A stretch of DNA of 64,000 nucleotides from Rhizodiscina lignyota. Its lineage: Eukaryota. Shown piece after piece: positions 24,947-38,499 of this stretch. The first letter of the stretch is position 1, and the number at the start of each line of letters is the position of its first letter. Where the stretch lies: positions 310,001-374,000 of the forward strand of contig ML978133.1 in the NCBI GenBank assembly GCA_010015805.1. The letters are read 5' to 3'. The notes under the pieces were generated by a model. The model was not told the DNA's origin. It did not search any database and was given only the letters and a program-made list of their open reading frames with translations. The position numbers and the translations under genes were made by a program.

Positions 24947-25984
24947 CTACTCTACTAATCCGTCATCAATCTCCTGAAAGATGGCCAGACCTATTCTACC
25001 CAGCGCCGTTCCAACTGCAACGGCAGAAGCACCAACGGATCGCATACGCTTGTACCCTTCTGCATCACTCACGCCACCCACGCCTATGATCTGGATATGC
25101 TGAAGCTCAGGGCGGGCTTTGATAAACTCTGAGAGAACCCGAACATTCCCTAAAGCGAGCGGATGAAGAGGAGCTCCCGCCATTCCTCCTATGCCGGCTC
25201 CAGTGCTTGAGTTAATGGTGGGCGTAAATGCGTCCTCATCGGCATCAATTGGCGAAAGAATCAGAGATGAGCCTAGTGTGTTTGTAGCCGTAATGAAAGA
25301 GACCTTGCAATTGCTCGCGCAGGTCGACAATGCATCGACGAGTGCCTTGAACTGATCTGAATACGTGTACGGCGGGACCTTGAGACCGATTGGGATCATG
25401 GGGTACTCAAGGACTTCAAGATACTCGATCAGACGCTCCCCCGAGTACGCTGGCGGAGGCTTGTCGGCTATGTTTGGGCATGAGAGATTTATCTCCATCA
25501 AGAGAGGGATGTCAACCTCTTCCTGTGTCGTGGCAATTGCATCGTGACATCGCCGGATCTCTAGAGGGCTGCCCGTGACTGATATGATGATCGGCTTGAT
25601 GTTTTTTGGCTTTGGAGAGAGGCCCTTGAGTACATCGGACAATTTTGCGACTATTTCCAAATACTCCGAGAGCAGCAGTGGTGAATAACCCAGTGTATTA
25701 AGGCTTCCGGTCTGCGTCGGATTGGCTTTGCCGAAAGCTGGTGTCGACGAATGCGACTGCGGATCGAAGAATGTGTATTGATGTATGGAATCATCGTGAG
25801 CAAAGCCGTCTATTAACGCAGTCCTTGTAGTTACCGCTCCGGTATATGGACAAGAATATAAAGCTTCGAGATCAGTAAAGTCTGTGGCCCAAGGATTCGA
25901 GCTGTTCAACAGTGGTGGTTCAATCTCAATGTGATCCTGCCGGCTGCTCTCTCCTGACGCCCACAGGGCATGTGGGACGCGCAT
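24947..25984 (-). CDS. Class 1A dihydroorotate dehydrogenase-like FMN oxidoreductase (possibly dihydrouracil oxidase)
   Basis: Intronless 345-aa ORF with LNSSNPWAT, GAVTTRT, LNTLGYS, EINLSCPN, ITATNTLG, GGMAGAPLHPLALGNV and IIGVGGVSD. Confidence 0.85.
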   Translation of the reverse strand: MRVPHALWASGESSRQDHIEIEPPLLNSSNPWATDFTDLEALYSCPYTGAVTTRTALIDGFAHDDSIHQYTFFDPQSHSSTPAFGKANPTQTGSLNTLGYSPLLLSEYLEIVAKLSDVLKGLSPKPKNIKPIIISVTGSPLEIRRCHDAIATTQEEVDIPLLMEINLSCPNIADKPPPAYSGERLIEYLEVLEYPMIPIGLKVPPYTYSDQFKALVDALSTCASNCKVSFITATNTLGSSLILSPIDADEDAFTPTINSSTGAGIGGMAGAPLHPLALGNVRVLSEFIKARPELQHIQIIGVGGVSDAEGYKRMRSVGASAVAVGTALGRIGLAIFQEIDDGLVE

Positions 25985-26468
25985 TGTGAATCAATGAGAT
26001 CCCTTTGAATTCGTGGGCTATTCTTATATACGAGAGAGATCGATTTGGAGAAGAGGAAGTGGGGCGTAAGGGAATTAACTAGATAGTGTAAATCCGGCGT
26101 TGTTGTTGAAAGCGGCAGGGTAGATAAGAAGTAAGTCTCATTACCAAATCATGGCGTGCCCAAGCTCAGGTAGCAAAGTGTCGGAAGAGCCTCGAGAAGA
26201 AAGAACTTTCACGTTACAAAACAATATAGATCATACAGCATCGGCACAACGTCCTTGTAAGAAAAACACTGGATGGCCTGCCAATAATATTGATTACATA
26301 AGTAGCTTCCATCGTCCTTCATCTGACAAATTCTACAGAAAACACAAATATGCTGTCGGAGCTGCACAGATTGTGCCTCATGCAATTCTAACGATATTGT
26401 ATCCTTGAACCGAGCCGACGGGGGAAGTGATGAGCCATTGAGCTTTGAATACGCTCTTGATCCTTCGT

Positions 26469-27475
26469 CTAATCTTCTCTGCCTGGACGTAGAGGGTCGT
26501 CCACTCGAGTAAAAGAAGGAAACTCTGATAAAAGATGCCCAGTGGCCCATTCCTTGATTGCGTCGAAGTCGCGGCATGTGTGAGGTACTTTGGGGTGGTT
26601 CGCATATCTTGGTGGGTCCAGTATGAGTTCCCATCGCCAGTAATGGGTGCTTATATCACTGTGACAGGTAACCAATTGCCGAAGAGAGTCGATACAGTGC
26701 TCTAAAAACATATCAGTGATCTCCCACTTCCTATGTATTCGAGATATCTCAGTAAACGTACCAACATGATGCATAGTTATATTCCTGTACTGATAACCAT
26801 CCCACAGTTGTCCATGATATCGCTCCGGATAGATAGTTCTGCGAATAATATTCAAGCAATGTAGCTGATGGAAAACATCAAGCATAGTGATATAACTGCC
26901 TTCATCTCCAGGCACAGGAGACGTGTAGTTCACTAGCTTCGCAGCTGATTCTTGCGGTATCTTGATGATCGTAGCTAATATGCTTGTTAGGAATGATGTC
27001 TGGAAGCCGACACCTTACCTGATAACTTACATTTGTATAGATTTTCCCAATTCCGATCGACTTCGTCATTGGGCATACCACCTTCCTCGGGAGGCATATA
27101 CTTCGTTTGAGGATCCAACTCTCCAGAGAACATCATGGTTTTATACGAAACGAGATGATTCGCAGGAGCTGAATTACAGTCAGTCAGTATCATGTGTTAT
27201 GATCCAGAGATCAACTCATCGGAAGAGAACTTACAATACAATGCCAAAGTCGGATCAGATTGATGCACTGGCTTGTATAGTATTATGATCAAAAAGAGAA
27301 AAAGATTCGAAATTGAAAGAATGACTAGTCTGTAATCCGGAAACTGCTGCAAGAACCTTTGACGTAGGGTATTTGCATGGCCTTCTTTATGCCATCTCGG
27401 CTCGTTTGGTTCGAGAGTACAGGTGTCTTTCTCAAGGAAGGGAAGTGTCTCTGCCGTTTGATTGGTATCATCCAT
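26469..27475 (-). CDS. UstYa-like DUF3328 oxidase (4 exons)
   Basis: N-terminal TM anchor (LVILSISNLFLFLIIILY), then SPANHLVSY, EVDRNWENLY, paired motifs VFHQLHCLN and HHV|EHCIDSLRQLVTCHSD, and HTCRDFDAIKEWA. Introns about 27169-27234, 26975-27030 and 26702-26761. Confidence 0.92.
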
Positions 27476-27656
27476 CGTAGGAATACTTTGATACCTCAGG
27501 CACTGGGTCGATTAGTCAATAAAAAGATTGGATATAAGGTGACACTTATATATCCAATTTTCTTTAGTGAGCGGGTATAGAGAAGCGGTTAAAATGGATG
27601 TATCACGAAAGACTAATGCAATCAGCCTCCCATTCTTTCACCGCGTTAGAAATTTC

Positions 27657-28003
27657 ATGTCTTTCTGTATAGAGTATCATGCCTAAAACAGGGGACAAGA
27701 ACGATAGATCTCGCTACCGTGGTTTGCTAGCTCTTTCGCTGCCTAGTGGGGGGGGGGGGCTGGCTTAGCGCTCGTACCTACAAAACTATATACCCATCTG
27801 TTGTTGTGAGTGAGTGCACAGTTTACTTTAGAATCCTAGCGGTGGCTTTTAACTCCTGGGCCCTACTAGCTTCAGCGAAAGAGCGAGAAACCCACGGTAG
27901 ACTTCTGTGTAGCTCGCTTACGGTTATTCTACAGCGCTAAAAATACTATGTCTTGCTGTTTAGAGTATCATACCTACAAGAGGAACGATAGATCTCGCTA
28001 GAC
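27657..28003 (+). repeat. Local direct duplication; the first copy is interrupted by the MITE
   Basis: atgtctttctgtatagagtatcatgcct...aacgatagatctcgcTA[MITE]TAgac (from 27657) vs atgtcttgctgtttagagtatcatacct...aacgatagatctcgcTAgac (27948-28003). Confidence 0.8.
27717..27897. mobile_element. Small TA-flanked MITE (181 bp)
   Basis: Left end ccgtggtttgctagctctttcgctgcctagtggg pairs with right end ccctactagcttcagcgaaagagcgagaaacccacgg. TA at 27715-16 and 27898-99. Confidence 0.78.
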
Positions 28004-28149
28004 CTGTATCTAGTTTCACATCGCTTCCGGCCGTAAATCAGTTGCGGCACTGTCGTCTTAATATTAGATAGATATAAGAGGTATTTGAAAGTACCTGGAA
28101 TTCTCTTTCCAACTTCGTCTCAAACCATAAACTAGACTCATCTTTCAAC

Positions 28150-28359
28150 ATGAAGTTTTCTATCGTTCTGCTTTCTATCTTTGCAGCTGGATCAATGGCA
28201 TCCCCTGTTGCGCAGACCACTAGTCTAGCAGCCTCGCCCACAGCTACTGTCGGACCCAAAACCCCACAGGATGAGGCAGTTATCAAAGCTCTCGTCGAAA
28301 ATAAGATCCTCCCAGATTACTACGACGGCCCTTATGGAATGGGAATCATCAAAGTCTAA
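28150..28359 (+). CDS. Small secreted peptide, candidate RiPP precursor (69 aa)
   Basis: Good start context (caacATG), TATAAG at ~28073, signal peptide MKFSIVLLSIFAAGSMA-SP, Tyr-rich C-terminus ILPDYYDGPYGMGIIKV, and a canonical intron just after the stop (GTATGT 28363, CTAAC 28396, CAG 28410). Confidence 0.78.
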   Translation: MKFSIVLLSIFAAGSMASPVAQTTSLAASPTATVGPKTPQDEAVIKALVENKILPDYYDGPYGMGIIKV

Positions 28360-28456
28360 TTTGTATGTTACGAAGGATCCTGTGATATTAAAAATCTAAC
28401 ATTGGATCAGGTGTTTTCAACAGCCCCGAAAGGCTGGGATCCCGGAGTCGGATGTT

Positions 28457-28547
28457 GATAGTTGAGGTGGTAGTTGAGGTGGATAGTTGAGGCGGATAGT
28501 TGAGGCGGATAGTTGAGGTGGAAAGTTGAGGTGGATAGTTGAGGTGG
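28457..28547 (+). repeat. 13-bp minisatellite (GATAGTTGAGGYG), about 7 copies
   Basis: Directly visible tandem units with minor variants. Confidence 0.9.
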
Positions 28548-29143
28548 TTCGTCTTGTCTGTACCTAATAGGCTATAACGTCACAATGAGTCACCCCTTTG
28601 TATAAAGGGGTCATAGTCTATCGTATAGTTGAGCAGAAATCACTCCTTCAGGACACTAGCTGCAACAAGACCTACCGCAGTGTGTTGATTGAGACTGTCC
28701 CACCACTATGCGATCACCCGCCACCATGCAATCGTCCATCATTATGTGATAGCATACGCTATCCTATGTATCCAGGCTCAGCATCTCCAGTAGATTGGAT
28801 GAAGCATTCCAATCAACGAGTATTGGTCAAGCCGTCGATCGTTTCTCGTGCACCATTGATCGCAGCTTTAGTTGCTCCTTGCTCAATCGCGACTGTGGGA
28901 GTCTCTTCGAAGTTCGAAGTGCTAGGGAGAATCCGCAGGAGAATTATATGGTTCCAAGCTTTGAAGACAGTCTACTTTCGGAACATGTATAGCAACAATC
29001 TTTGCTGGGTGGAGGAAAGAGGCGTCGATGGCTTTTCAGACTGCATCGATGTCCATATATCCACACTAAGCGTTGAAGGTGAGAACTAGCCCTGTTCCCT
29101 CACTGCCCGGTGGCCCAGCACAACTTTATATTGCCACTAAAAG

Positions 29144-30639
29144 CTAAGTAGTTGTAGACATTTTGCCACCCACGGTCTCGTTTGCGAAATATAGCCAGCT
29201 CCAGTGCTCTTCGGGGCTGTCCCACAGGCTCTGCATCGTCATAACATCCTCATCTTTCGGTCCCGCCAACAGTATCGCCAACTCTATGCTTAGCGCTGCG
29301 TACATTTTCGTCTTCTCTTTTTGGCCTATGAAGCTACACTCTAGCGCTGCATGTAGGTATGCGTTGGCGAGGATGTTTTCTAGGCCCTCCTGCTTTACCA
29401 GTGAAATGAGTAGCTCTGCATCATCAATAGTCGCTGTACGATTGACAGACTGGTCAGAGAGCCTGTCAAAAAGGTCACTAATGACCACGAGGCGAGAATC
29501 GGAGATGTCGGTATAGAAACGGGGCTGGTTGCATCGTGGACAGGTACAATTGAAGCCACAGTTGCTGTAAAGAAAATCTAAACGCTTCTGCCGAACCAGC
29601 AGAGGGTTTATGTCTAGTAGCGACGTGGTTAGCATTAGTGTCCTACAAGTCATGTGCATACTACGCCAGTCATACATTGCATGTAGAACTCTTCGTTAGG
29701 GTCGATATCTCTGATTGCGTGGAAGTGCTGCGTCCAGGTGTCGGGATCTAGAAAGGAAACTACACTTTATACACTTTAGCGAATTTCGAAATGCACGAGT
29801 CTATGCACCTACTTCGGCCTGCACGCATGATTCAGTCGCTGTATCTGGTGATTAGTGTATAGCAAGCATCTTGAGCGGGTACAGCTCACCGCGGTCTCTG
29901 GGACGACGATCAAGTAATCTTTTCCGTCGCTACTAAGCTCCGTCCTGAAGGCGTTGGTAGCGATGATATCGTTTACCAAATCTCCACCAAATTGGCCATG
30001 CAGAGCTAGATAGGCCTCTCTCGTCTTCTGGGGAAGCCTCGCAACACCACGCTTCTGTAAGAACTCCCGGTCGCTATTCGGCATGGCCTTGTATATCTTC
30101 GTATTGATGACCAGTACGGGAGTATGGGAAAAGATTCTATCCCCACGATATATTCTAGTGTTTGCAATTAGACCAATACCTCGTCCTGGCCGCGCGCGAG
30201 CTTCGTAGATAAAGGGCGGTTCCGTGTTTGCTCCCCGGAGAGCCTCTTTATTCGTAAAAGCTGCCATCTCTTCAATTGACTTTGCGGCGGTTGGAGTGGT
30301 AATAACTGATACACCGCGGCTGTCCGCAAAAGTGAGACTCGTGTAGAGGCAAAACGGTTCGATATCATTACTGCTCTCTACGCAGTCCGGTTTATACGAC
30401 CATGGGGGCGTGATTTCAAGCTCCTGCACCACGCGGTGATGTCGATGGGTAGACTCGATCCGAAGTGTCGTTGGAAGATCAAGACCAGGCTGTTCGCGCC
30501 AATCGCAAATCGGGCTAAATCCGAGAAATTCAGAAAGCAACGAAATAGAACAACTGCCAACGCCCAGCTGCATAATCTCAGGGGCAGAGGCTTGGGAGAG
30601 GGACGCAATTACCAAGAAAAGAAAGAGCGGCATATTCAT
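29144..30639 (-). CDS. SET-domain methyltransferase with an N-terminal signal peptide (4 exons)
   Basis: Hydrophobic leader MNMPLFLFLVIASLSQAS, SET motifs PGRGIGLIA, RLNHACRPN and HAIRDIDPNEE, post-SET GFNCTCPRC, and a helical C-terminus ending PEEHWSW. The second intron needs an AAG acceptor to stay in frame. Confidence 0.85.
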
Positions 30640-31283
30640 CGTCAATGTCCAGGCGTTCAGATGGCGAAGAGACTAGAGTTCCAGTTCCACCGCACAGCGG
30701 GATGTTTAATGTATGCGTTGGAGTTCAGCTACCAGCTTCCGAGCCAGATGCACGCCTACGCGATGTTTGGGAGCCCAGAAGCGAACGGATAAATAGGCGA
30801 CTTTTCGTCCACTCGGCACAATGGGAGGCCGTAAGGATTGAATCAAGTCAACCGCTTCTCCTGGATACAAGAACATCGTACAAGAAAAGCCAATGGAAGT
30901 TTGTGAGACATGTGGGTCAGCTTACGAAGGGGCTAGTGTCCACGGCTGGATTTAGTTAGTGTATGCCAAAGGAGCCGCATACACTAAATTTTTGCGGCAA
31001 AACGCCGGCCTCTTGCATTTACTCCCTGGATAATGGCCCCTTCGTACTGTAATATCCCGTACTGCTAGCACTTAGGCTTCGTATTTGCTATTGATATGTT
31101 AGAACCATGCTAGCTCCATCGTGCAGACGTGCTTGCAAATTACGATTGGAGAATGGGAATATCAACCCTTGTATGATAGGCTGGTATAAGAAATGTTGTT
31201 GTCCACCGGATATGCAGGACACTTACACGCTTTGAGGCAGCATAGCTTGCAGACTTTCAATATCTTGCCTTACCGACGTCAAC

Positions 31284-33441
31284 ATGCTGTGGTATTTTCT
31301 CTTTATTGCGAGCTCAGCACTTACTACTGTCTTAGCAGCCCCAGCCAGCCATGTGCTCCACGAGAAACGGGATTCTAGGAGGCAGCTCCCTCGGCGACGT
31401 GTGGAACCCGATGCCTGGATTCCCATTCGAGTGGCGCTTAGGCAGAGCAACCTGGATGCCGGCCACGAGCGTTTGATGCAAGTGTCACACCCCCGCTCAC
31501 CAGACTATGGCAAGCATCTGTCTCGAGAAGATGTGCACAACCTTTTTGCTCCAGTCGAGGAGAGCATCAAGGCTGTCAAAGATTGGTTACTCAAATCAGG
31601 TATCAAGACCGGGTCGGTTGTCGACTACGCGAATAAGGGATGGCTCGCCGTGGACATGCCGGCTCGACAGGCGGAACTTCTTTTCCATACCCAGTATTAT
31701 GAGTATTACCATACCGACGGCGCACGGATCGGCTGCGACAGCTACTACCTACCGAGCGAAGTTGCCGGACATGTAGACTTCGTCAAGCCGGGGGTTAAGC
31801 TTTCAGGAACCCTCAAGAAGCGACAAGTGGAGAGGAGAGATATTCTCTCAAGACCTGTTGGCCCGTGGGAAAAACCACACCACATTCATCCTCGACATGA
31901 TCCGGCCTACTCAATGTTTCCAGGAGCCCATGCGCTCGCTCCAGACCTGCAAAACTGTGGAGTCAACATAACCCCAACTTGTATCAAAGCTCTTTATGGC
32001 ATTCCACCAGCAAGTCATAGTGATCCTGTAAACGCCATGGGACTTTTCGAGCATTTCGACGCATTCGCACAGGAGGACATCGATCTTTTTTTCAAAACTT
32101 TCGCCCCCAATGTCCCACAAGGAACTTCACCAACCGTACTCTCTGTCGATGGCGGCACAGCACCAGTAGCTCCAAGTGATTTGCGCAATGGGGCAGAGTC
32201 AGACAGCGACCTCGACATATCTTATGCACTAATTTACCCCCAAAATGTCACTGTTTACGAGATTGACGATCTACCCAACTCTTCGGGTGAAACAAACAAG
32301 ACTGGGTTTCTCAACACATGGCTTGATTCAATCGATGGGAGCTATTGCAGCTATTCCGCTTTCGGAATCACTGGAAATACTCCAAGTATCGATCCCACGT
32401 ATCCGGATCCGCTTCCTGGTGGCTTTAATGGGAGTCTAGAGTGTGGTGTGTACGAGCTTACTCGTGTTGTGAGCATTTCGTACGAGGAAGCTGAAATTGA
32501 CCTTCCAAAACGTTATGTAGAACGCCAATGCAACGAGTTTATGAAGCTCGGTCTGCAAGGACATTCTATCGTCGTGCCCACTGGGGATTACGGTGTTGCC
32601 ATTTTCCCTGGTGCGAACGGGAACGAGTTTGGATGTCTCTCTGGCTTCGGACAGAACGGAACCATTTACAACCCGAACAATCCTTGCGGCTGTCCATACG
32701 TTACGGCGGTCGGTGGAACGCGTTTATATCCTAACCAGACCGTCATTGATAGAGAGAGTGCGATGCAGGTCAATATCCAAGCTCTTCATCCAAGCCTACC
32801 ACCGGCCTTCGCCCTCTCCTCCTCTGGCGGAGGCTTCTCCAATTATTTCACCCAGCCTTCATACCAGAGAGCTGCAGTCCAAGGCTATCTTTCGAACCAT
32901 AACACTCTACCATACTACCTTGCTAATGAGGCTGCAACAAACATTGGAGCAAACGGTGGTGTATATAATCGTGCTGGGAGAGCATATCCTGACGTTTCCG
33001 CGAATGCGGCCAACTTGCTGGTCTTCAGTGATCTTACGGTATTTCCTAACTTCGGGACAAGCTCGGCATCTCCCATATTTGGGTCTGTCTTGACGCTTCT
33101 AAACGAAGAACGAACAGCAGTTGGCAAAGGCCCCATTGGCTTTGTGAACCCGGTATTGTACGAGTGTAAGTGGTACAAGTGGCTGCAAGCTTCTCAATAT
33201 CGGGGCGTATTGCTAAAGGTTTCCATAGACCCGGAAGTACTTAACGATATTACGAATGGCTCAAATCCAAATTGTGGTAAGTCTCCTTGCGCAATTGCAA
33301 AATGATCAAAGAGTTCGAGAAGTTGACCGAATATGCTTAGGCTCCTCAGGCTTTCAAGCGGCCAAGGGTTGGGATCCTGTCACAGGTTTAGGTACTCCAA
33401 ATTTCCCGAAAATGCTTGAGCTGTTTCTGGCTCTGCCATAG
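31284..33441 (+). CDS. Secreted S53 sedolisin / tripeptidyl-peptidase (aorsin-like), 2 introns near the 3' end
   Basis: Signal peptide, Pro-kumamolisin prodomain (VSHPRSPDYGKHLS), ITPTCIKALY, ESDSD, GDYG, SGGGFSNYF, GRAYPDVSA, GTSSASP, DITNGSN and GWDPVTGLGTP. Confidence 0.93.
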
Positions 33442-34135: not shown

Positions 34136-35240
34136 TCATGAGGCCTCACAATTGCCAATGAAGAACGCAATGCTGGGCGTGAAATTGACAGTCATCTCAA
34201 GATCCGTCTCCTCTGTGTCGTCCGCGAAGACCCTAACGCGCTTCACCTCTTTACAGCCCAACCGCGATTTATGATTGAGCAGCAACCAGGCAACGCCTTC
34301 GCCATTTGGAGTACCCAATAAAGCTTTGGCCGACTCGTCCTCGATTGGGCTATCTTTAGCTTCGTTGAAGTATCCATACTGGTTGCCAGATTCCTCGACT
34401 ACCCTGCGGGCAGCTGCGAGCGTTATCTTGTCCGTGATACCACAGCGGACGATGAGGTTGATGTTTGTAATGTGGTCTTGAGCTAGTCTTTGCCATTCGA
34501 GGAAGACAATGTCTGACCAGTAACGCAGAGCAGGGACGTGATACTTCCCGGCCTGGTAGCCCTCTTTGTCCGCTTTGAGGAACGCCCCCTGTGGGCTGAG
34601 ATTCCGCAAAGCAAATATGGCACCATCGAGAGGGTCGTAGAGTTGGGTGAAATGCGGCATTTCAGATTGTTCGGGCTTCTAAAAAGAGTCAGTGAGTAGT
34701 TGTGGACGGGAGTACACGAACCCGCCTCTCCGCTTTTGGCAAGTTGTGTTGAGAATCCCCCCAAGCCGAATGAATTTGTCTCATATCGTTCAAACCCTTA
34801 AAACTTAAGGTGTGATAGAGGGTGCTAAACTGGTGCTTGAAAATCCGACCGTATCCCGTCTCACTCGTTTTCCAATCATTCTGCTCGAGACTCTCGTAGT
34901 TCGTCCACTTGCTCTCAGAACCCTCATGCTTGCCATTGTTTATTTCGGAAAGAATGTGAGTTGCGGCGTTGGCATCTTTGGCGCGCATCGCATCACCCAG
35001 TATTCCACCTTTGCAAATCAGCCTCTGCCAGGTGCTGTCATCGGCCGGTCCAATGTGCTCGAGGGATATTTGTCTGGTGCCACGAATCACATAGCGCCCC
35101 AAAGACTCGGTGACGCTTGAAGAGAGCGGGGGAGGAAGAGAAACGGATTGAACATGACGATTTCTTGCTGCGTCGGAAATGGCTCCCTGAAAGAGCGACA
35201 AGACATAGACAAAGGCGAGATTGAGAATCATACGATGCAT
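34136..35240 (-). CDS. Secreted protein of unknown function, tandem paralog 1
   Basis: Signal-like MILNLAFVYVLSLFQGAIS, WQRLICKG, one phase-0 intron (~34679-34722), PALRYWSDIVFLEW and ALLGTPNGEGVAWLLLNHKSRLGCKEV. Confidence 0.75.
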
Positions 35241-35688
35241 GGCCGGAGCGGTAGACTGACCAAGATTATTGAAGCTGCTGAGGACTGAGGCAGAACATAC
35301 GCTTAAAAGGATTACTGCAAACTGCAATGACGGCGTTCGAGGCATCACTCTACGTAAGTACCGGCTTCGTTGATCCCGCGGCGATTATGCGGATACGTGA
35401 CCAAGAAGCCTGTGATAATGCGTAAATGCCGCGAAAACAATACCTTTCCTCAAGGCATACTAGGTCACATTTCACTAGATATTGGGCTTAGCTGATTAAC
35501 ATTAAGCTTGAGGCGAGTCGAAATAAAGGAAGAACGCAGACAAGGCAAAGAGCATTAGTAGATAAGTATGAACCATTGCTCCGTGATAGCCAATTCAACC
35601 ATTTCCCGATGTACGAAGTAGAGATATCCCGAATGCGACACCACTCTCCACATTAGACTCGCATACCAAATTCCTCCAAGCTACTACC

Positions 35689-37347: not shown

Positions 37348-38499
37348 TCAGCAATCCTCTATGAAGAAAGCAAGAGCTATTGGGGATTCATCCTCTTCCG
37401 CGTTCGAAGGGCTGTGTTCATTGTCTTTTAGGAAGACCTTGATTCTCGTTACTTCTTTGCATCCAAGCTGTTCTTTATGGTTGACCAGAAACCAGGCCAC
37501 ACCTGCACCAAGAGGTGTTCCTAGCAGTGCTAGACCTGGAGCTGTGTCTGCGTATATATCCGGTGCCTTACGAAACAGAGGAAGCGACTTCCATTTTATT
37601 ACGTGTAGCGCTCTCTTAGCAACCCCAAGAGTCTGGCCGTCATTGTTGCTTAGACTGCGGACGATGAGCTCCACTTTTTTGGTTTTATCACCTGCAACCT
37701 CCTGTCATAACAGGAAGGTAACGTCGGACCACTGTTTGAGACTAGGAGCGACTGTCGGATCAACATCCTCATGGTTTTTCCAGAGCGTTTGGTAAACATG
37801 CGTCGGACTCATGGATGCGATTTCCATAATAAGACCGCGGTCAATGTTGTAGACAGATTGATACTGCGCTCCATGGAGCTATAAAAATTGTAAGTATAGT
37901 GACCTGAAGAAGATTTAGAAACATACTCCGAGTTCATTGTTCTGCCACTCCGGGTGGGCCCAAGACCACCATGACGCTTTCGTCGCTTTATTCGAGCGAG
38001 CATTACGGATACCAACGCTCTCGAAGACGGAGCCAGCGGAAGCAACGGCATCAATCATAAGCTCATCGAGATAGAGGTCAAAGGACGTCCACCCACTCTC
38101 CTCAATATCATCCCACGATTTCCATTCGCTTTCGAGCGACTGATCATTGCCACGGTCCCGCATAAGGGCTTTCAACCTCTCTCCTTTGCAGCGAAGCGTG
38201 TTCCATTGTTCGTTGGAAAGTTCGGAGCTCGGGTCATTGTCAGGCAACTTTGCACCTGACCGAGTATCTAAGTCTGAAGAGGTGTCATTCAGACCAGTCC
38301 ACGAAGCTAATTCATCTGACCGTTTGGCACGATTATCAAGGATCCCGAATTTTTGTATCAGATGGTGTGCATGCCCTGCATTGGCTCCTTTGGCAGCTGA
38401 ATGATCCGGAATTGTGGCTCCTTTCGACAAGCCAGGAACGACGATAGCGCAAAGTAAAAGGAATGATAAGGTGGTAATTAACGTGGTATGCAATTCCAT
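37348..38499 (-). pseudogene. Tandem paralog 3 with an in-frame TGA at a conserved Trp (37705-37707)
   Basis: Signal peptide MELHTTLITTLSFLLLCAIVVPGLS, WNTLRCKG, same phase-0 intron, PSLKQWSDVTFLL*QEV, then intact ALLGTPLGAGVAWFLVNHKEQLGCKEV. Confidence 0.72.

Follow-up and report, generated by a model that had tools for sequence, protein, structure and literature searches.

ORF69 is an open reading frame (ORF) of 69 codons on the forward strand of a 64,000-nucleotide stretch of Rhizodiscina lignyota DNA (contig ML978133.1, positions 310,001 to 374,000), which we call the window and whose numbering is used throughout. Very probably it is a genuine gene, and its product a small secreted peptide. 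The reading that we favour, tentatively and without holding it to be the probable one, is that ORF69 encodes a single-core, kexin-independent precursor of a ribosomal peptide modified by a UstYa/DUF3328 oxidase and a SET-domain enzyme. ORF69 is divergent from a UstYa/DUF3328 gene and convergent with a SET-type methyltransferase gene, beyond which lies a gene for a sedolisin-type (S53) peptidase; the four genes span ~7 kb. Because ORF69, the UstYa protein, the SET-type protein, and the sedolisin each begin with a predicted signal peptide or hydrophobic anchor, all four products would enter the secretory pathway. It is this combination, the same cast as in the epichloecyclin cluster with all four members predicted to be secretory, that leads us to prefer the precursor reading.

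ORF69 and its family

The frame runs from an ATG at 28150 to a TAA at 28357-28359, exactly where a preliminary description of this DNA had placed it, and encodes the protein MKFSIVLLSIFAAGSMASPVAQTTSLAASPTATVGPKTPQDEAVIKALVENKILPDYYDGPYGMGIIKV, which starts with MKFSIVLLSIFAAGSMASPVAQ and ends with ILPDYYDGPYGMGIIKV. The signal peptide and the Thr/Pro/Ala spacer named in that description are both recognizable from hydrophobicity, the S-M-A site, and composition. The N-terminus is built like a signal peptide (n/h/c), with Lys2 and a best 10-residue Kyte-Doolittle mean of 2.66, and cleavage would be expected after S-M-A, before S18; the assignment was made by hydrophobicity and the -3/-1 rule. 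It is also correct, as had been noted, that the protein has no KR site and no repeat: it contains no dibasic site, no Cys, and no internal peptide repeat, the only periodicity reported by Tandem Repeats Finder (TRF) being one of 8 nt in the DNA of the signal-peptide codons. No Pfam family matches ORF69, and tblastn found no paralogue in the window (next best E 0.96).

Since ORFs of this size are frequent locally (51 of at least 50 aa in the 13 kb around ORF69), codon usage was scored against a reference of 13 long Pfam-supported exons from the same window. ORF69 scores 0.187 per codon. Windows of 69 codons taken from real exons have a mean of 0.117 (n=95), with 89.5% scoring no higher than ORF69, and wrong-frame ATG-initiated ORFs of 50-120 aa have a mean of -0.038, none of the 57 attaining the score of ORF69. 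The other five frames over the stretch range from -0.111 to 0.0. Upstream of the start codon, TATAAGA and the CT-rich stretch that follows may serve as a fungal TATA box and leader. The exact protein is not present in a collection of 15 billion proteins, and this copy therefore appears never to have been called as a gene.

Relatives do exist. A phmmer search of 1.84 billion representative proteins returned two matches at E<=0.001, P0001 (62 aa, 7e-7) and P0002 (59 aa, 1.3e-6); a profile search added P0003 (62 aa, 1.1e-15), giving three matches among 38 candidates, and the 90% cluster of P0001 contains three further members (P0004-P0006). The family comprises six homologues of 59-62 aa and, with the window copy, four distinct sequence types. 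The homologues are 50-60% identical to ORF69 and the mature part is conserved: with the signal peptide removed (residues 30-69), BLASTP matched P0002 at 5e-15 (63% over 32 residues), P0004 at 2e-13, and P0003 at 8e-8. Each homologue also bears a single motif, with no tandem cores, and terminates 6-9 residues past it, as ORF69 does, which indicates that the ORF69 stop codon is genuine. Dibasic sites are absent from the window protein, P0002, and P0003, and P0001 has just a C-terminal RK. A profile search for longer relatives found none at E<=1 among 7999 scored candidates, a weak argument against the family being a part of longer proteins. A word-index homology search with the single ORF69 peptide gave no match, and the best score in an Atlas search with ORF69 was 0.80, to bacterial lipoprotein clusters and in the noise range.

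One metagenome match, the only stretch of 373 pattern-matched ones to pass tblastn, was examined and rejected. It lies on a high-GC, bacterial-looking contig (L001), where positions 413-496 carry GPKTPQEEAELKALAAQ, with its chance GPKTPQEE..LKAL, within a 169-aa frame that adjoins a 366-aa secreted metalloprotease-like ORF with HELGH. This frame is not a relative of ORF69.

The pattern of conservation is where the precursor-like character of the family would lie. Mean pairwise identity among the four types is 0.59 in the signal peptide, 0.21 in the spacer (residues 18-34, 8 residues longer in ORF69 vs the homologues), 0.53 in the stretch 35-54, 0.75 in the motif (residues 55-60), and 0.14 in the tail. 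The signal peptide is conserved in all seven aligned sequences, and nine residues are kept in 7/7: G35, P36, T38, P39, L48, P55, D56, Y58, and D59. The four tails (PYGMGIIKV, PGWVTRK, TYSAGK, and ELPPYEE) share almost nothing except that each has exactly one Tyr or Trp. The conserved leader and variable Tyr-containing tail that had been proposed as a supporting sign are thus what the alignment contains, with Trp in place of Tyr in one type. Together with the absence of Cys and the prediction of one helix and no globular fold, this layout appears precursor-like.

Two earlier descriptions of the peptide have to be revised. The segment DEAVIKALVENK had been called amphipathic, but its helical hydrophobic moment is 0.18 vs a shuffle mean of 0.28, with 76% of shuffles as high or higher, and in all four family types the moment is at or below the shuffle mean. 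A helix as such is predicted: AlphaFold2 with the family alignment gives one at residues 39-50 (predicted local distance difference test, pLDDT, ~75 for the block), and the rest is not ordered (mean pLDDT 57.5). The YYxGxY pattern likened to asperipin-2a is present in ORF69 as Y57-Y58-x-G60-x-Y62, and the asperipin-2a core is indeed FYYTGY (PMC6514808). However, the family keeps just Y58 of this pattern, and the asperipin-like arrangement is therefore not conserved. Position 57 varies (Y/T/L/N/S), with a T/L difference even among the >90% identical members of the P0001 cluster; G or D occupies position 60, and position 62 has no fixed residue. Ile or Val is kept at position 53. None of the Lys positions is invariant: K37 is K/T, K46 is K/D, and K52 is Lys in three of the four types.

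Downstream, an intron-like element of 48 nt (28363-28410, GTATGT ... CTAAC ... AG) begins 4 nt past the ORF69 stop codon and could be an intron of the 3' untranslated region or a matter of chance. An extension of ORF69 through it was considered and rejected: the donor lies after the stop, the ORF has no good donor inside it, and the homologues stop at the same place. Reading from K68 across the element continues as ..APKGWDPGVGC, resembling the C-terminal ..AAKGWDPVTG of the sedolisin (33256-33441), whose last exon contains GWDPVTGLGTPNF; this likeness is too short to be significant, and there is no tblastx match at E<=0.01.

Comparison with known systems and weighing of the alternatives

Comparisons with published systems refer to the available portions of the cited papers. 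The closest parallel is the epichloecyclin (gig) cluster of Epichloe festucae, which consists of the precursor gene gigA, the DUF3328 gene gigB (281 aa), the SET-domain gene gigC (422 aa), and the S8 peptidase gene kexB (PMC10540207). GigC, a Lys N-methyltransferase, dimethylates the core Lys of epichloecyclins; knock-out of gigB abolishes the cyclic peptides and knock-out of gigC leaves desmethyl forms (PMC10540207). Likened by gene types, the ORF69 locus brings together, over a few kb, a gene for a small candidate precursor with a signal peptide, a DUF3328 gene (~280-295 aa), a gene probably of SET type (~420-450 aa), and one for a secreted peptidase, as in the gig cluster, and no other pairing of DUF3328 and SET domain in a shared biosynthetic context was found in the literature portions consulted besides this cluster (PMC10540207). 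GigA has a signal peptide, LXKR kexin sites, and 27-residue repeat units with cores such as INFKIPYT (PMC10540207), and the proposed epichloecyclin ring joins the N-terminal Ile to an internal Tyr (PMC9233826). The ORF69 family likewise has Tyr as a conserved core residue with Ile/Val upstream (Ile/Val53 and Tyr58), and single-repeat gigA-like genes in Aciculosporium take give a single core its precedent (PMC10540207). In contrast to GigA, whose LXKR sites and repeats accompany a core with a conserved Lys and with Pro next to Tyr, ORF69 is free of KR and of repeats and has no invariant Lys, and its invariant Pro55 and Tyr58 are parted by D-x. The peptidase also differs, being an S53 sedolisin here and an S8 kexin there.

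Other systems share fewer features. In the asperipin-2a cluster (aprA, aprY, aprT, and aprR) a single DUF3328 enzyme, AprY, suffices for Tyr-based macrocyclisation (PMC6514808), and ORF69 resembles AprA, whose core is Tyr-rich, in having a signal peptide and a Tyr near the C-terminus beside one DUF3328 gene. Unlike AprA, with its Kex2-processed repeats and FYYTGY core, the ORF69 family has Tyr57 in just one of four types, and no transporter or AprR-type reductase was identified near ORF69. With the dikaritin precursors UstA and PhomA, ORF69 shares the signal peptide, the core Tyr (Y58 in 7/7), and the proximity of a DUF3328 gene, and in a survey the place adjoining the precursor gene was where DUF3328 genes were most frequent (PMC7329392); ORF69 has neither their tandem repeats nor their flanking KR, and the ustiloxin and phomopsin clusters also have a tyrosinase and a methyltransferase (PMC7329392), which are not present here. 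A 2025 survey of lichen-forming fungi describes UstY clans R1 and R2 in clusters without a repeat precursor, for which single-core peptides are just speculated (PMC12048977); unlike those, the ORF69 locus offers a specific, conserved precursor candidate. A short, non-repetitive, single-core fungal precursor is known from acalitide, whose 81-aa AcaA has a leader and a follower cut by a dedicated peptidase (PMC10840396). ORF69 would be of that kind in the favoured reading, although the macrocycle of acalitide is formed by a peptidase together with disulfides and does not involve DUF3328 (PMC10840396), and there is no sequence likeness.

A working model of the maturation can be given. The signal peptide would carry the ORF69 product into the lumen of the endoplasmic reticulum and Golgi, where the stretch 35-54, with its predicted helix, would play the part of a leader in recognition. 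An oxidative cross-link at the invariant Tyr58 of P-D-x-Y-D, proposed here as the modification site, would then be made by the membrane-anchored UstYa/DUF3328 oxidase; by analogy with the epichloecyclins, the partner of Tyr58 may be Ile/Val53 at a newly exposed N-terminus, or else the lone aromatic residue of the tail. The signal-peptide-bearing SET enzyme could methylate a Lys (K52 or K68), and release of the product would fall to a protease other than kexin, for which the secreted sedolisin nearby is a possible candidate. We infer all of this for the ORF69 peptide, that is, the enzymatic steps, the ring topology, the cleavage sites, and co-regulation. The model gains from the lack of another candidate substrate nearby, no signal-peptide ORF with KR repeats occurring between 18 and 38 kb. 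A complex prediction for UstYa exon 3 (167 aa) with ORF69 residues 18-69, in which the alignment was not used, gave a score of 0.00 (mark 0.34) and weighs neither way.

A number of points weigh against this model. Many of the numerous UstYa genes of fungi lack a known substrate, which makes adjacency by itself a weak argument. The UstYa-dependent peptides described in PMC12048977, PMC7329392, PMC6514808, and PMC10540207 all come from Kex2-processed repeat proteins, and KR sites and repeats are both absent from ORF69. No cleavage site, basic or of another kind, is kept ahead of the motif (the P0001 type has Asn in place of K52). Although the suggestion that Lys residues could be SET substrates has its precedent in GigC (PMC10540207), the SET enzyme would have no invariant Lys on which to act. 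With Gly at Tyr58+2 in three of four types, an ustiloxin-type ether from Tyr to the beta-carbon at i+2 is impossible there. The peptidase near ORF69 belongs to S53 and not to S8 as in the gig cluster, the SET assignment leans on a sub-threshold Pfam match plus motifs, and the ORF69 family is tiny. Finally, the promoter regions 27476-28149 and 30640-31283 share three 10-mers vs a shuffle mean of 0.87 (max 8), which is not significant.

Several of these points serve equally well an explanation that we regard as a serious contender and near-equal to the precursor reading, namely that ORF69 is a stand-alone small secreted peptide (for signalling, adhesion, or host interaction), unmodified or generally processed, whose place beside the UstYa and SET genes is fortuitous while the UstYa substrate is unlinked. 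In favour of this, the gene is very probably genuine, with homologues and a predicted signal peptide; it does not show the repeats or KR sites that mark known UstYa substrates; the promoters have no motif in common beyond chance; and several signal-peptide ORFs in the 26-39 kb region may make it an island of genes for secreted proteins. Ordinary small secreted proteins, moreover, commonly combine a conserved segment with a variable, disordered C-terminus behind it. Such a peptide nevertheless needs three coincidences, the divergent UstYa adjacency, the SET neighbour with a signal peptide, and the secreted peptidase next to it, which together mirror the epichloecyclin cluster; and the invariant residues have at their centre a Tyr, which is what UstYa-type enzymes cross-link. 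A secreted regulator, either a sedolisin inhibitor or chaperone-like partner that folds on binding or a signalling peptide with a sulfated or phosphorylated Tyr in D-x-Y-D, strikes us as improbable. The predicted disordered peptide with one helix, the invariant Tyr flanked by invariant Asp, and the secreted protease gene ~3 kb away would suit it, and both helix-on-binding protease inhibitors and acidic Tyr-sulfation motifs exist; on the other side, there is no family match (no Pfam family, and Atlas scores of at most 0.80, in the noise range), the sedolisin is not the immediate neighbour of ORF69, and we know of no tyrosine sulfation enzymes in fungi.

The least probable account is that ORF69 is non-functional, a chance ORF or decaying relic in a repeat-rich intergenic region. 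The local abundance of frames of at least 50 aa (51 in 13 kb), the absence of the exact protein from the 15-billion-protein collection, and flanks in which a segment of ~80 nt is duplicated, alongside an inverted repeat, a run of G12, and seven tandem copies of a 13-nt unit, speak for this account. Against it stand a codon usage that exceeds all 57 spurious ORFs, homologues at 50-60% identity with a conserved mature part and a C-terminus at the equivalent position, and the TATA-like box with its pyrimidine-rich leader upstream.

We go one step further than the precursor reading only with more doubt: ORF69 and its homologues might be a new kind of fungal RiPP (ribosomally made, post-translationally modified peptide) precursor, with one core, no kexin sites, a helical leader, and P-D-x-Y-D, matured by DUF3328, lumenal SET, and sedolisin enzymes. 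Neither a kexin-free single-core UstYa precursor nor the family motif is described in the literature searched, whose coverage leaves out most subscription journals. Because ORF69 has no KR sites and no repeats, repeat-based mining would miss it; the preliminary description was right on this point, which holds by construction, and its suggestion of an overlooked precursor class can be kept as a hypothesis.

Neighbouring genes and surroundings

The features of the locus are collected in Table 1.

Table 1. Features of ORF69 and of the neighbouring genes (window coordinates)
Feature	Coordinates	Strand	Basis
ORF69, single-exon gene, 69-aa secreted peptide (very probable)	28150..28359, stop included	+	sequence, codon usage, homologues
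ORF69 predicted signal peptide, residues 1-17	28150..28200	+	hydrophobicity; homologues align as SIA|AP or AIA|AP
ORF69 Thr/Pro/Ala/Ser spacer, variable, residues 18-34	28201..28251	+	alignment identity 0.21; AlphaFold2 pLDDT <50
ORF69 conserved leader-like stretch, residues 35-54 (GPKTPQDEAVIKALVENKIL)	28252..28311	+	alignment identity 0.53; predicted helix 39-50
Near-invariant motif P55-D56-x-Y58-D59-G60	28312..28329	+	identity 0.75; P55, D56, Y58, D59 in 7/7 sequences
Hypervariable tail PYGMGIIKV, residues 61-69	28330..28356	+	alignment identity 0.14
Putative core promoter and 5' leader: TATAAGA 28073-28079, then pyrimidine-rich to ATG	28073..28149	+	sequence reading
UstYa/DUF3328 gene, 294 aa, three exons 27475-27235, 27168-27031, 26974-26469	26469..27475	-	Pfam and gene model
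Probable SET-type methyltransferase gene, 446 aa, inferred exons 30639-29890, 29844-29813, 29764-29676, 29613-29144	29144..30639	-	model, motifs, Pfam, Atlas
Secreted sedolisin-type (S53) peptidase gene, divergent from SET-type gene	31284..33441	+	Pro-kuma_activ PF09286 E 1.3e-37; hydrophobic N-terminus

The DUF3328 gene mentioned in the preliminary description is indeed there, intact at this locus, on the opposite strand, and 675 bp from the ORF69 start codon. Its largest exon matches PF11807 at E 1.1e-21 (78.2 bits vs a cut-off of 25), and in the three-exon model the donors are GTAAGT, the branch sites are CTRAY, and no stop interrupts the frame. The product has an N-terminal hydrophobic anchor and the motifs HQLHC and EHC. 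Directly downstream of this gene and on the same strand is a DHODH-family flavoenzyme gene (24947-25990, -; PF01180 E 8.7e-22), which may have a housekeeping function or may encode an oxidoreductase of the cluster, its position being like that of AprR in the asperipin cluster. A Na/H exchanger gene also lies beyond the UstYa gene.

The gene on the other side, whose 3' end is 785 bp from that of ORF69, is probably of SET type. Its model of 1341 nt is self-consistent, has no internal stop, and unites NHACRPN, RDIDPNEE, and CTCPRC, which we take to be SET and post-SET signatures. PF00856 matches exon 1 at E 0.027 and 15.3 bits, under the cut-off of 22.4, and stays sub-threshold because introns split the domain. 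In the Atlas, exon 1 scores 0.97 to Ascomycota clusters; 13 of the 30 matches fall in a set named SET domain-containing, with PF00856 on 11% of its members. Searches of PDB sequences with the SET-type exons gave just chance matches. The intron at 29889-29845 (45 nt in our model) is in frame, so an unspliced reading remains open. The N-terminus of the product, MNMPLFLFLVIASLSQASA, is signal-peptide-like, with a hydrophobicity of 3.05. SET-domain enzymes do not usually have a signal peptide, and its presence would suit the tailoring of peptides in the lumen; a SET enzyme that carries one is otherwise hard to explain. The sedolisin would be a possible processing protease, its membership of a cluster being suggested by position alone. 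Past it are signal-peptide-like ORFs without a Pfam family, one of 218 aa at 34689-35345 (-), perhaps continuing in 34136-34660, and one of 194 aa at 37915-38499 (-).

The window as a whole has the character of fungal DNA, its spliceosomal introns being short and its G+C content 50%. The region of ~26-39 kb looks like an island of secreted-protein genes amid housekeeping genes, the rest of the window being mostly of the latter sort (TRAPP subunits, kinesin, PRMT5, a DEAH helicase, Uba2, and UMP1). Among 49 long ORFs scanned across the window there is no nonribosomal peptide synthetase, polyketide synthase, tyrosinase, or S8 peptidase, and the sedolisin is the sole peptidase identified.

The intergenic regions have features of their own. 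A 13-nt unit, GATAGTTGAGGTG, is repeated 7.1 times (92% matches) at 28457-28547, ~100 nt past the ORF69 stop codon, where the 3' regions of ORF69 and the SET-type gene converge, and an eighth near-copy occurs at 28622-28633. Between the UstYa gene and ORF69 there is a diverged direct duplication (27633-27716 and 27924-28000, 77% identical), both copies ending in the identical 18-mer GAACGATAGATCTCGCTA. It encloses a 28-nt inverted repeat (27714-27741 and 27873-27900) and a G12 run (27748-27759), and this arrangement in the shared promoter may be the footprint of a small mobile element.

Significance of the ORF69 locus

Fungi have many UstYa/DUF3328 genes, and in the available portions of PMC12048977, PMC7329392, PMC6514808, and PMC10540207 products are assigned only to those beside Kex2-repeat precursors. 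The ORF69 locus provides a concrete, conserved candidate for a single-core UstY substrate, flanked by the enzyme types of the epichloecyclin cluster. If the precursor reading is true, some orphan fungal UstYa genes would have small, unannotated single-core substrates that are invisible to repeat-based mining, and it would be worthwhile for fungal precursor mining to add a rule, namely an uncalled signal-peptide ORF next to a UstYa gene. Signal-peptide SET-domain enzymes would similarly gain a second peptide-tailoring context. If it is false, ORF69 would still represent a new, narrowly distributed family of small secreted peptides of a kind that gene callers tend to miss.

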